Of a stretch of 64,000 bases of DNA, positions 2,791-60,042 are shown piece after piece. The stretch lies in NCBI GenBank assembly GCA_034120015.1, contig JAXEIF010000029.1, positions 118,963-182,962 on the forward strand, given 5' to 3'. The notes under the pieces are model-generated. The model was not told where the DNA came from, searched no databases, and saw nothing but the letters and a program-made list of their open reading frames with translations. The position numbers and the translations under genes were made by a program. Positions within the stretch are counted from its first letter, which is position 1; every line of letters starts with the position of its first letter. This DNA comes from Spirochaetia bacterium (GTDB lineage Bacteria > Spirochaetota > Spirochaetia > JAFGXN01).

Positions 2791-3684
2791 ATGACGAAAA
2801 GGTTGATGTTATCGTTTTTATGTGTTTTGGCGGTAAGTTGTTCCCGTGGCGGTGATATGCTCTCACCGGGGGAGCTTCGTATAGAAAACCGCTCCGATGC
2901 CCGGATTGAATCGGTGAAAGTGTCCGTGAACGGGGAAGTGAAAGCCGAAGTTTCCGGCGAGGCAACGTCCGGCGTGATTTGGCGTCCCCAATATCCTTTC
3001 CCGGGAAGAGGTTCTCAATACCGTATCGAGATACAGCTTTCCGGCAGTACCAACTATTTTATTGATCGGACATTTGTTTACGATTCTGCCGATGATTTGG
3101 TATTTGTTTTGAACGGGGATTATTCTTTAACAAGTACGATGGATGAGGTCTCCGGTCTGTCTTCCGGAATAAAAATCAGCCTTTCGGCCGATCAGAAACG
3201 GAAACAGGAAGAAATCGAAGCCGGATTTCAAGCCTATAAAAACTGGCTTAACGACCGTACCGAAAGAATGGTAACGGTTCTTTCCTCTATGGCGAAAGAA
3301 AATAAAGTTGTCCTGACAATGGACGGCAACCGGCTGACGGAATTTTCAACAACGCAGGATATTATAGATTTTTTCGGGTTGGAGACGACTGACGGATATC
3401 TGGGGACTGTTTTTACCCAAGTGACAACGGAATTTAGCGGTGATGCCGAAACAGCGGAATTTCAACCCGCATTGGCACAAATTGAAGCGGAAACGGCGTC
3501 TCTTTTGCCGAAAGCCCCGCAGAACCTGCTGCTTCCGGCATTGAGAGAAAGTGCGGTTGAAGATGAACGTTACATCACACCTTCCGGCGGCGCTCCCATA
3601 GATAAGCTTAATGAAGGCTATCGCGAGTCTGTTTACTGGTACAGCGGCATTTTGGAAGCCGCCTCCGGCGTCAAAGGAAATTAA
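2791..3684 (+). CDS. hypothetical lipoprotein
   Basis: Signal peptide plus lipobox (MTKRLMLSFLCVLAVSC). AGGAGG ribosome-binding site upstream. No recognisable domain. Confidence 0.5.
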   Translation: MTKRLMLSFLCVLAVSCSRGGDMLSPGELRIENRSDARIESVKVSVNGEVKAEVSGEATSGVIWRPQYPFPGRGSQYRIEIQLSGSTNYFIDRTFVYDSADDLVFVLNGDYSLTSTMDEVSGLSSGIKISLSADQKRKQEEIEAGFQAYKNWLNDRTERMVTVLSSMAKENKVVLTMDGNRLTEFSTTQDIIDFFGLETTDGYLGTVFTQVTTEFSGDAETAEFQPALAQIEAETASLLPKAPQNLLLPALRESAVEDERYITPSGGAPIDKLNEGYRESVYWYSGILEAASGVKGN

Positions 3685-3694
3685 GGAGGATTTT

Positions 3695-4132
3695 ATGAAA
3701 AAATTACTGCCGCTTATTTTTTTACTGCCGGTGTTGGTAGCCTGTCCGCCTTTGGAAGAGTGGGAGGAGCTGCGGGGAATCGAATTTTATGTGGAAAACC
3801 AGACCGGGGAGCCCGTGTACATCCAATATGACGAACGGGCAAAGACGATTGAACCGACCGAAAGTTTCCATGCCCGTGCCCGGGACAGCCGTTCGGCGTC
3901 CGAACTCTATTTTGGCCGCGAAAACTTAAAAAGGTTTAACGGTTTTTCTATTCCTAACGATTCCTGTTTTTTTACGATCCCGATTCAGAAACTCAGAGAG
4001 AATTGGGAATCCAATAAGGGCCGCTTCAGCGACGAACTGCTGGGGGGATTTTTACGGCCTATCCGGTGCGAATCGATTCGGAGTATGACGAACGGGACGG
4101 ACGTCAGATTTATAAATGGATTTTTGAGGTGA
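3695..4132 (+). CDS. lipoprotein N-terminal module. Probably the frameshifted 5' part of the downstream C11 peptidase gene.
   Basis: MKKLLPLIFLLPVLVAC lipobox with an AAGGAGG ribosome-binding site 7 nt upstream. The ORF ends at 4132 inside the next ORF, which lacks its own signal peptide. Confidence 0.45.
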   Translation: MKKLLPLIFLLPVLVACPPLEEWEELRGIEFYVENQTGEPVYIQYDERAKTIEPTESFHARARDSRSASELYFGRENLKRFNGFSIPNDSCFFTIPIQKLRENWESNKGRFSDELLGGFLRPIRCESIRSMTNGTDVRFINGFLR

Positions 4133-5274
4133 AAGACAGTTGGCTGGCCGCCGGAAAGGCTTCGGAAGACCGGAAATCAATGCCGACTGAAATGTATGGT
4201 AATGTGCTTGTTTATATGGCTGCCGATAACGATTTGTACACGGCCGCGCTCAATGATATCAATGAGATGGAAGCCGGCTGGAATGCATCCGTTCCGCTTT
4301 ATGTCTTTCTTGATCCGCCCCAAAATTCACCGTTTAACCAGCCGCTGATTTTCCGGATTGTCCATGATGAGACGGATGAAATTGTCAGTCCGGTCGTTAA
4401 GGTGTTTTTACAGGAAATTGATTCGGCTTCCAAAAACGGAATGGTGTCGGTTTTATCGGAGGCGGGTTTTTATTTTGACAAACTGATTCTCTGGTCCCAT
4501 TCAACCGGATGGCTGCCGGAAAATATTGATTACAACCGGATTCCGCTGCAGGATACCCCGGCCGGTACGGCAGATACCGGTGCGGACACGGCTTCCCGTA
4601 TTGCTTCCCGCACCTTTGCCGTTGATGATACGGCAGGAAGCCGCATGTCGATCCGGGATTTGGCGTCGGTATTTGAATCGTCTTTTCAGGTCGGGACGCT
4701 GGTTTTTGACTCGTGCCGGATGGGAACGGTGGAAGTTTTTGCCGAATTTTCCGCTGCCCAAATTCGGCGCATCATTGCCCCGGCGACAGATATTGATGTC
4801 GGAGGGCTTTACTACACGACATTGGCAGGAATGTCCCGATGGGAAGAGATTGACCTGAACAAAGCTGTTGCGGAATACAAATCCGCCGGCGGCGGAGAGC
4901 TGATGCTGATTGCCTGCGATCCGAAGGATTTCGGCAGTACCGGTCCTTTTTCGCGGCAGCTGACATTCGATCCCGTTCAGCGGTCGGATATGAAACCGAT
5001 GCAGACTCCCGAAAACGGATACGCGGTTGTCTTTTATGATTTTTTCCATTTTCTTGATCAGGCGGTATCCGCGGAAACCGCCGCAAAGTTAAAAGAAGTC
5101 TTTGAAACGGCTCCGGAAGGGGCGTCTCCCGGATTTTACCTGCCGTATACAGCAGCGGAAAACCCTTCGGTCGTTCTGAAAGAAATCAACGCCGCCTTTC
5201 TGAACACTGTGTGGGGGAAAGCCGTTTCTTTTTCCGATAATATCGCACTTCCGTCCGGAACCGGTCTTGACTGA
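4066..5274 (+). CDS. clostripain-like cysteine peptidase, family C11. Reading frame is open from 4018 and is probably fused to the upstream lipoprotein ORF.
   Basis: Hallmark VLVYMAADNDL motif. His/Cys dyad context WSHSTGW ... FDSCRMG. No ATG start or signal peptide; the track start is a GTG. Confidence 0.6.
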   Translation: MRIDSEYDERDGRQIYKWIFEVKDSWLAAGKASEDRKSMPTEMYGNVLVYMAADNDLYTAALNDINEMEAGWNASVPLYVFLDPPQNSPFNQPLIFRIVHDETDEIVSPVVKVFLQEIDSASKNGMVSVLSEAGFYFDKLILWSHSTGWLPENIDYNRIPLQDTPAGTADTGADTASRIASRTFAVDDTAGSRMSIRDLASVFESSFQVGTLVFDSCRMGTVEVFAEFSAAQIRRIIAPATDIDVGGLYYTTLAGMSRWEEIDLNKAVAEYKSAGGGELMLIACDPKDFGSTGPFSRQLTFDPVQRSDMKPMQTPENGYAVVFYDFFHFLDQAVSAETAAKLKEVFETAPEGASPGFYLPYTAAENPSVVLKEINAAFLNTVWGKAVSFSDNIALPSGTGLD

Positions 5275-5284
5275 AAAGAAAAAA

Positions 5285-5392
5285 GGAGAATCAAATGAGA
5301 AAGGAGAACCAAATGAGAAAGGAGAACCAAATGAGAAAGGAGAATCAAATGAGAAAGGAGAATCAAATGAGAAAGGAGAATCAAATGAGAAG
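5285..5392 (+). repeat. Six tandem 18-bp repeats (GGAGAAYCAAATGAGAAA), each containing a Shine-Dalgarno-like GGAGA and an in-frame ATG
   Basis: Read directly: ATGs at 5295, 5313, 5331, 5349, 5367 and 5385. Copies occur as T/C variants in the order T,C,C,T,T,T. Translates as MRKENQ repeated five times and then MRRIG.... Confidence 0.9.
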
Positions 5393-6481
5393 AATCGGAA
5401 TGATTATACAGGCGGTTTTGATACTTATCCTGTCTTCCTGCTACAGGGGAGAAGGGGGCACTTTTGGCTACGGAAGCGACGGCGAAGGCGGAGTCATCAT
5501 TAAAAATGCGATTGTGACAGGCGACTCGCTGGTGATTCCGTCGGAAATCAACGGTAAACCGGTGACAGGTATCGGGTACGAATGTTTTTCAAAGAGGCCG
5601 GGATAAAAAGTATTGTCATTCCCGGTTCCGTAAAAGTGATCGGGGAGAGGGCTTTTGGGTCGTGTACCTCTGTGGAGTCGCTGACCATTGAGGACGGGGT
5701 AGAAAAAATCGAAAGTTGGGCTTTCCATAGAGTGCCCATTAAAGAATTGGTCATTCCCGGATCCGTTTCCGAAATCGGAAAGTGGGCCTTTGATGAATGT
5801 GAGAATTTGGAAAAAATAACCATATTGCCCGGAAAGTTAAAGGAATTTCCCATGGCTTTCTTGGGATTGACTTTCAAAGAGGTCATTTTTCCCGAAAATA
5901 TTGAAAGCGTCGACCTGGTCTGGTCTTCCGACGCCCGGGTTGTTTATAATCCGGTGAATATAAGAGCTCCGCTCTTCTCGGGGGCCATCCGGTCGGACGG
6001 GCCTGTCGTTGTCGATCCGCGCTACCCATTCGCCTATACCGGAAGGCTGTACTATTCCGACGAGGTTTATTTACAGTGGGAGCATGAGAATCCGTGGGAT
6101 TTGTATGAACGCACTGTTGAAAATGTATTTTTTGAGCCTCGGACCTCGTCGATGCCGGGGGAGAAGGAGTATGAAGGTTTTCTGGAGTACGGAGGCGGAA
6201 ATGCTTTGACGGATATATACCGCGATAACCTGACCTATTCTCAGTATATAAGAGAGCAGCAAGACAGTACGCAGAACAGATTTTATTTACAACTGGCGGA
6301 AACAGGCGCGCCGCTCACTTTTTATGTTCCGAATGAGACTGCCAAAATGGTGATGGATAATAGAAAGAAGGAAATTCTTCAGTTTACTCCGGAGCAGGCT
6401 CGTGCGCTTTGCGGTGATCCTACTCTGGATTTTGCCAAGACTCTTAATCTTCAGGTGGTTGTCAGGAAATACGGTGAGTGA
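5295..6481 (+). pseudogene. BspA-type leucine-rich-repeat surface lipoprotein, frameshifted at a T5 run (5585-5589). Two ORFs: 5295..5606 and 5582..6481.
   Basis: The N-terminus MRRIGMIIQAVLILILSSC is a lipoprotein signal. IPxSVxxIGxxAF(G/E)xC repeats (LRR_5/BspA type) occur on both sides of the frame break. The final repeat ...GIGYECFSK continues as ...EAGIKSIVIPGSVKVIGERAFGSC in the +1 frame. Confidence 0.55.
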
Positions 6482-6508
6482 CGCTGTCTGTCCGCCGGAA
6501 AACAAAAA

Positions 6509-6533
6509 GGTCTCCTTTTCGGAGACCTTTTTT
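6509..6533. terminator. bidirectional rho-independent terminator
   Basis: GGTCTCC-TTTTC-GGAGACC followed by TTTTTT. Preceded by an A-run on the opposite strand. Lies between the LRR gene end and tRNA-Leu. Confidence 0.7.
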
Positions 6534-6616
6534 GCCGGTGAACGGACTTGAACCGTTACAGGCGTGAACCCGGCAGATTTTGAGTCTGCTGTGTCTACCA
6601 ATTTCACCACACCGGC
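6533..6616 (-). tRNA. tRNA-Leu (anticodon CAA), about 84 nt with a long variable arm
   Basis: The reverse complement reads GCCGGTGTGGTGAAATTGGTAGACACAGCAGACTCAAAATCTGC...GGTTCAAGTCCGTTCACCGGCA. Cloverleaf with anticodon loop CTCAAAA and a T-arm of GGTTCAAGTCC. Confidence 0.8.
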
Positions 6617-60005: not shown

Positions 60006-60042
60006 AAAGTTGATATAAAAATATACATTACGGGAGAATCTT

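Follow-up and report, generated by a model that had tools for sequence, protein, structure and literature searches.

An in-frame minisatellite with a Shine-Dalgarno sequence and ATG in every unit, variable in copy number between strains, at the 5' end of an LRR lipoprotein gene in an uncultured spirochaete

The 64,000-nt stretch of DNA analysed here (the window) is part of a 235,543-nt contig of the NCBI MAG 'Spirochaetia bacterium', with locus tags of the series SOZ27_079xx. The locus of interest consists of a C11 peptidase gene and an LRR lipoprotein gene, with an array of short tandem repeats at the 5' end of the second gene. Its features are given below in window coordinates.

3695-5274, forward strand: C11 (clostripain-family) lipoprotein peptidase gene, 524 aa, intact in other strains and split here
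4042-4047, forward strand: G6 tract, a +2 frameshift that splits the C11 gene (G4 in five loci, L001-L004 and L011)
5275-5284, forward strand: A-rich lead, AAAGAAAAAA, which follows the C11 stop codon (TGA, 5272-5274), precedes the first repeat unit and partly resembles the 3' end of a unit
5285-5392, forward strand: array of six head-to-tail 18-bp units, located with Tandem Repeats Finder and by pattern matching
5295-5297, forward strand: first in-frame ATG, from ORF translation; a start here adds (MRKENQ)x5 to the n-region of the signal peptide
5295-5606, forward strand: 5' part of the LRR lipoprotein gene, closed by a premature TAA (5604-5606); a start at the first ATG gives 103 aa and one at the last ATG 73 aa
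5385-5441, forward strand: core lipoprotein signal peptide, MRRIGMIIQAVLILILSS followed by Cys, with lipobox L-S-S-C and Cys codon 5439-5441, assigned by inspection
5582-6481, forward strand: 3' fragment of the LRR gene in the shifted frame, with BspA-type LRR_5 repeats and a C-terminal domain without family match
5585-5589, forward strand: T5 tract, a -1 frameshift that breaks the LRR gene (T6 in nine orthologous loci)
6504-6532, no strand assigned: perfect 12-bp inverted repeat, AAAAAGGTCTCC and GGAGACCTTTTT around a 5-nt loop, between the LRR gene and a tRNA-Leu gene

The array was by far the strongest tandem repeat of the window. Tandem Repeats Finder placed it at 5282-5391 (period 18, 6.1 copies, 97% matches, no indels) with a score of 206, and the runner-up scored 48. 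The unit reads GGAGAA(T/C)CAAATGAGAA(A/G) and supplies a Shine-Dalgarno (SD) sequence (AGGAG), a 6-nt spacer, an ATG and 2.5 further codons. In a pattern search GGAGAAYCAAATGAGAAA was found without mismatch at 5285, 5303, 5321, 5339 and 5357, and with one mismatch (final A to G) at 5375. Seven matches were observed in the window against 0.21 expected from shuffles, the seventh being an ordinary ribosome-binding site (RBS) at 60033 which carries three mismatches and is the sole near-match outside the array in 64 kb. The six ATGs (5295, 5313, 5331, 5349, 5367 and 5385) lie in one stop-free frame, and the ORF from 5295 reads (MRKENQ)x5-MRRIGMIIQAVLILILSSC..., alternatively quoted as (MRKENQ)x5-MRRIGMIIQAVLILILSSCYRGEGG.... 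Many genes of the window have AGGAG(G) 5-7 nt ahead of their start codon, and since these genes use the same motif and spacing, each unit of the array (AAAGGAG, 6 nt, ATG) qualifies as a canonical initiation site when judged by this organism's genes. Searches of 4900-5800 on both strands with Rfam covariance models gave no match at E<=1.

These results agree with much of an earlier reading of this DNA made from its letters only (the sequence-only reading). It had described six in-frame SD and ATG units ahead of the signal peptide of a BspA-LRR lipoprotein, and this was borne out by Tandem Repeats Finder, pattern matching, ORF translation and Pfam. Pattern matching likewise confirmed the two unit variants in the order T,C,C,T,T,T at the T/C position, a difference which is synonymous (AAT or AAC, both Asn). 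The further claim that the unit is a multiple of three and that copy changes keep the frame also stands, the unit being 18 nt long and free of stops in the frame of the gene.

The array begins 10 nt past the C11 stop codon. No promoter-like site was found in the array or in the A-rich lead at 5275-5284 and, because the lead has none, the LRR lipoprotein gene is probably co-transcribed with the C11 gene. The inverted repeat at 6504-6532 is likely to be a bidirectional terminator closing the operon; the tRNA-Leu(CAA) gene beside it, at 6533-6616, is convergent to the LRR gene. Two observations on the surroundings may be added. The gene before the C11 peptidase (window 2791-3684) encodes a 297-aa lipoprotein in the window and in L001, and the same position in other strains (L002 1-1377) is held by a 1136-aa protein of the same protein cluster with a weak astacin match; it looks like a strain-variable gene or gene fragment. 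GC skew was positive in almost all 2-kb blocks of the window (1-64000), with a cumulative value of 3.16 and a short dip at 36-40 kb; probably the window belongs to a single replichore and carries most of its genes on the leading strand.

The lipoprotein signal was judged by inspection against the n-region, the hydrophobic core and the lipobox pattern [LVI][ASTVI][GAS]C. The arrangement MRRIG-MIIQAVLILI-LSSC was kept in 55 of 60 related N-termini, 51 of which had the charged n-region while the other 4 had been called from an internal MII start. All units of the array precede the lipobox Cys and, as the extension lies ahead of this residue, the mature protein would be the same whichever ATG is used, through the predicted cleavage by signal peptidase II. 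The LRR_5 family (PF13306, BspA type) was matched with E=3.1e-22 and a score of 79.2 bits, the gathering cut-off being 27.7, and orthologues carry the PF13306 annotation. On the lipobox and the LRR_5 domain, the product is a putative surface lipoprotein and candidate surface antigen. The C-terminal ~180 aa (window 5880-6481) had no Pfam match and are mosaic between strains (e.g. HPISSLMGEHGYEG, DPHQTSLMPGEVPYED, EPRTSSMPGEKEYEG). An AlphaFold2 model of an orthologue had a mean pLDDT of 56, with values below 50 in the C-terminal half.

In the window the array heads only a truncated product of 73-103 aa. The sequence-only reading had let the frame of the array continue into the LRR domain, and in this genome that is not the case: a 1-nt deletion in the T tract brings in the stop at 5604-5606, where orthologues read through the junction uninterrupted (...GIGYECFFKEAGIKSIVIP...). 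The NCBI annotation gives a 73-aa hypothetical protein from the last ATG (5385) and a separate 299-aa LRR protein. The T5 tract is also present in Logan contig L013 (run SRR21357785), which encodes the exact 299-aa fragment of the window, and whose sample we infer to be the window's own. Since this independent assembly has T5 too, the frameshift does not stem from a single faulty assembly. Elsewhere the window is covered with long ORFs whose domains are complete, and the T5 and G6 breaks are therefore local and not part of a general error pattern; general sequencing error was rejected as the source of the frameshifts on this ground and on that of the T5 shared with L013. Because the LRR gene has a -1 change in its T tract and the C11 gene a +2 change in its G tract, both genes of the putative operon are off in this genome. 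As to a rescue of the T5 break, programmed frameshifting is unlikely, no X XXY YYZ heptamer being present, and transcriptional slippage is also unlikely, as the T run would be too short for efficiency.

To compare the array between strains we used the DNA of ten near-orthologues together with L011 (the GTDB representative, 'uncultured Spirochaetes bacterium BRZ_M__bin37') and Logan contigs L013 and L014. The copy numbers were as follows.

Two copies: seven loci (L001, L003, L004, L005, L007, L010, L011)
Three copies: three loci (L002, L008, L009)
At least three copies: one locus (L014)
Six copies: the window

The sequence-only reading had proposed a comparison of this kind, and the count proved not to be fixed, with 2, 3, at least 3 and 6 units in different samples. 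Three unit variants occurred in differing order: GGAGAATC, which was the commonest, GGAGAACC, seen in the window and in L014, and GGAGGAAC, seen in L003, L004 and L008. Both copy number and unit composition thus differ between strains of one uncultured spirochaete species. No single-unit allele was found among the 12 loci with an MRRIG-type signal peptide, all of which carry at least two units.

The counts come from short-read metagenome assemblies, the window itself being a MAG contig, and the six copies or the differences between samples might have arisen by mis-traversal or collapse of the array, since the shortest path through a de Bruijn graph would retain two copies at k=31 and three at k=55. 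We give such an artefact hardly any credence. L013, a k=31 Logan contig, starts inside the array with exactly 31 nt of periodic sequence (ATCAAATGAGAAAGGAGAATCAAATGAGAAG). A periodic 31-mer with two successors splits the de Bruijn graph, and the break would therefore mark at least three identical terminal units in an array that was not collapsed, in the place which three or more identical 3' units predict and in a contig that shares T5 with the window. L014, from another run, shows the same type of break with C-variant terminal units and encodes an intact 365-aa gene with T6, and arrays of at least three units are consequently not confined to broken genes. Since longer arrays are seen in L013 to break and not to collapse, the two-copy alleles of L001 and L005 are credible; here Logan contigs of 30-60 kb (60 kb for L001) run straight through two copies. 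In L011 a SPAdes MAG contig spans a two-copy array that is resolvable at k=55. The arrays moreover differ in the sequence of their units and not just in number. The three-copy counts were taken from ENA scaffolds for which the assembler is not known and could be lower bounds, as three copies would be the shortest path through a longer array in a k=55 assembly.

A second type of 5' cassette was seen in L006. It extends over about 100 nt, taking in the end of the C11 gene and the intergenic region and reaching the signal peptide (L006 181-290 compared with window 5250-5445), and encodes MKKNRIKVIAAALCLVLSAC behind one SD and ATG, free of repeats. The alternative cassette, MKKNRIKVIAAALCLV-LSAC, fits a predicted lipoprotein signal too. 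As the flanks are still ~90% identical, the difference between L006-type and MRRIG-type alleles suggests cassette exchange by recombination.

Evidence on which ATG is used came from a natural variant. In L003 (1509-1526) and L004 (1390-1407) the last ATG is changed to ATA and the ORF is intact; this allele is present in 9 distinct full-length proteins from many contigs, called by different gene callers as MRKENQIRRIGMII... (371 aa) or as MIIQAV... (360 aa). Because the internal MII start has neither an SD nor a charged n-region, the upstream SD-preceded ATG is the only plausible start in the ATA allele. A precursor with one MRKENQ extension would then be made and tolerated in a common intact allele. 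The sequence-only reading had held that initiation at the last ATG (5385) only, with a constant copy number, would make the array a neutral duplication; initiation confined to that codon does not hold for a widespread intact allele which has ATA there. The start annotated at the last ATG is, by the same allele, not always the right choice. Gene callers place the start at the last ATG, the second-last ATG or the internal MII and never more than one unit upstream, so that protein lengths could not be used for copy counts. When the N-terminal 99 aa, which include the repeats, were used in a protein search, one truncated allele was the sole result and longer (MRKENQ)n products were absent, and among 213 related proteins no exact N-terminal tandem repeats containing M were found.

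The ATA allele also bears on whether the peptide, and not the RNA, might be what matters. The (MRKENQ)n extension would in that case lengthen the n-region, with a net charge of +1 per unit, and might influence targeting, the rate of translocation or processing by Lgt/LspA, an effect that extended signal peptides have in some autotransporters. A unit that is a multiple of three and stop-free in the gene frame, a T/C variant that leaves Asn in place and an ATA allele necessarily made with one MRKENQ extension are all consistent with such a role. We nevertheless regard it as improbable: six units put the Cys at position 49, past usual lipoprotein signal peptides, and the GGAGGAAC variant changes N to E without obvious constraint. 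A precedent would be the extended signal peptide region (ESPR), a hydrophilic N-terminal extension before the normal signal peptide of autotransporters. The extension studied here is likewise hydrophilic and ahead of a signal peptide, but it has no sequence similarity to ESPR, which is neither repetitive nor length-variable, and a Pfam scan of the 103-aa N-terminal ORF matched 0 families, ESPR included.

RNA folding predicted that the array, which is purine-rich, is largely unpaired, and that pairing with the pyrimidine-rich segment of the signal-peptide coding sequence at 5395-5426 involves the last unit or the last two. On modelled alleles of 1, 2, 3 and 6 units the computed cost of opening a 26-nt window was 5.4-6.4 kcal/mol at the last unit compared with 2.5-3.9 kcal/mol at upstream units. 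The sequence-only reading had taken the six start sites to be equivalent; in silico they are not, as the last unit is partly paired and costs more to open. The 18-nt spacing of the units is smaller than the footprint of the 30S subunit and the six sites cannot, for this reason, all be occupied at once.

The same open, evenly spaced motifs could in principle be a binding platform. The AAGGAGA motifs at an 18-nt period might bind a CsrA-type repressor that recognizes GGA, or might stabilize the mRNA through 30S binding in the manner of a STAB-SD, in which case the number of copies would determine the degree of repression or the half-life of the mRNA. Geometry is what speaks for it, with six regularly spaced and mostly unpaired GGA motifs. 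A pure binding platform would have no use for an optimally spaced ATG after every motif, however; the GGA motifs lie outside hairpin loops in the predicted fold, and neither a csrA gene nor a known RNA family was identified in the region searched. A platform of either kind, proposed by analogy, is thus very improbable in our judgement. In STAB-SD of Bacillus thuringiensis cry3A an extra upstream Shine-Dalgarno sequence influences expression. The array resembles it in having SD sequences in addition to the real one and upstream of it, but STAB-SD consists of one SD remote from start codons and here every SD has an ATG at 6 nt.

The reading that we put forward, at about an even chance, is that the array is a slippage-prone minisatellite derived from a duplicated initiation region which probably grades translation. 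The gene's own initiation region (SD, spacer, ATG and first codons) would have been duplicated in tandem to give an in-frame minisatellite, with units then gained or lost through replication slippage or unequal recombination. The native, promoter-distal start would be partly sequestered by its pairing with the signal-peptide coding segment, and every extra unit would present a more open SD and ATG, to serve as a further start or as a standby site. In this way the level at which the lipoprotein is translated might rise in heritable and reversible steps, unlike classical phase variation with its on/off frameshifting. The gain would be expected with the first extra units and would then saturate, because at an 18-nt spacing, below the 30S footprint, ribosomes initiated upstream would occlude the downstream sites. 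All possible products have the hydrophobic core and the lipobox L-S-S-C in common, and the array would alter only initiation and the length of a hydrophilic n-region that is cleaved off. It is the modelled RNA folding that points to an influence of unit number on the amount of protein made; elongation may be slowed by the internal SD motifs, and the gain from extra units would be sub-linear and might even be negative. In this genome any effect is moot, the LRR gene being off.

A near-neutral in-frame VNTR would account for many of the same observations, and we consider it a real possibility, while leaning against it. The initiation region would have been duplicated by chance slippage between short internal repeats (GAGAA, AGAATC), and copies would drift without a meaningful effect on output, the extra peptide being cleaved off at no cost. 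The extension does lie wholly ahead of the lipobox Cys, the frequent disruption of the gene in other samples hints at selection that is weak or fluctuates, and copy number and gene integrity were unassociated in the few loci seen. The largest array moreover sits on a frameshifted gene whose operon partner is frameshifted too; that the highest-copy allele is on a broken gene is as compatible with relaxed selection as with tuning. The identity of the units reflects recent duplication and is uninformative on selection for the integrity of SD and ATG. Against near-neutrality, 0 of the 12 loci with an MRRIG-type signal peptide are single-copy, the ATA allele implies that an upstream unit is used and needed in many strains, and the upstream units are predicted to be markedly more accessible, which makes an effect on initiation physically likely.

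Among known systems the array most resembles repeat-based contingency loci and 'rheostats', yet without a change of frame or of promoter spacing by short units. Slipped-strand contingency repeats in the 5' coding or signal-peptide region include CTCTT in Neisseria opa and CAAT in Haemophilus influenzae lic1, the latter with several alternative ATGs. As in opa and lic1, a repeat of strain-variable copy number is found at the 5' end of a surface-protein gene (here 18-bp x 6, at the start of an LRR lipoprotein gene, and differing between samples), and as in lic1 several candidate ATGs stand ahead of the gene body. Homopolymer tracts of the LRR gene (T6, A6) that are frameshifted in different samples are a further likeness to contingency loci. 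In opa and lic1, however, the repeats move a fixed ATG in and out of frame, whereas here each unit has its own SD and ATG. The usual units are 1-7 nt long; the 18-nt stop-free unit keeps the frame and does not switch the gene on and off, either by frameshift or, there being no promoter-like site, by promoter spacing.

Graded expression is known from 'rheostats' such as the AGAT repeats in the 5' UTR of Moraxella catarrhalis uspA2 and the T tract of the Helicobacter pylori sabA promoter. With these the array would share a stepwise, heritable tuning of surface-protein level by repeat number, but they are short non-coding repeats that act on transcription or mRNA, and the unit described here is a translation start and is translated in frame. 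Surface proteins with in-frame VNTRs include Treponema pallidum arp (60-bp repeats) and staphylococcal protein A (Xr repeats). The array agrees with these in having a unit that is a multiple of three, a surface-associated product and copy-number polymorphism between strains. The arp and Xr repeats lie in the mature protein, where they alter antigenicity or reach, whereas all units of the present array lie before the lipobox and are predicted to be removed with the signal peptide.

MIRU units, as Supply et al. in 1997 are said to have noted, carry small ORFs that overlap the stop and start codons of their neighbours. The array is like them an intra-operon minisatellite that is polymorphic in copy number and whose units hold translation signals. 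MIRU units differ from those of the array in their length of 40-100 bp and their dispersal over many loci, and each makes up an independent small ORF that ends in a stop codon of its own (translational coupling); the 18-bp units of the array occur at one locus, contain no stop and continue in frame into the gene that follows, with one ordinary RBS as the only near-match in 64 kb. MIRU-VNTR are intercistronic repeats of mycobacteria, found for example between senX3 and regX3 (PMC3544749).

No description of a tandem array with an SD and ATG in its unit was found in the full-text literature searched, and the literature on Treponema BspA/LRR lipoproteins added nothing on such arrays. A search of viral contigs for GGAG-N6-ATG at an 18-nt period, three times over, gave at least 120 matches, nearly all of them (GGAGAT)n or peptide repeats within ORFs; among the matches listed none was at the 5' end of a gene. 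Exact patterns for the signal-peptide anchor and for the unit junction had no match in JGI metagenomes, and the species appears to be absent from that collection. The stacked SD and ATG architecture is thus seen at one locus in one species. That it represents a distinct class of contingency element, which sets initiation capacity and n-region length and complements the on/off breaks in homopolymers, is a suggestion that we make with considerable doubt. Three routes are known by which repeats vary bacterial surface proteins: on/off frameshifts, promoter spacing and repeats in the mature protein. If the proposed tuning is true, a repeat of RBS and start codon would be a fourth route, giving graded and reversible tuning at initiation and leaving the mature protein untouched.

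The C11 peptidase and the LRR lipoprotein form a locus that seems to be a hotspot of variation in this widespread and uncultured spirochaete. Hotspots of this kind usually point to surface components exposed to host or phage. Among the alleles compared, inactivation of the LRR lipoprotein has been recurrent and independent. An A6 to A7 insertion (window-equivalent 5811-5816) was found in P0130 and P0181, and deletions between LRR repeats 135 bp apart (repeats at 5615-5792) were in frame in P0007 and out of frame in P0010, P0165 and P0214; other truncations of the gene occurred in further samples. The C-terminal third of the LRR protein is mosaic between strains, and the locus can be read as a variable surface-protein island in which variation takes several forms, the 5' repeat among them.
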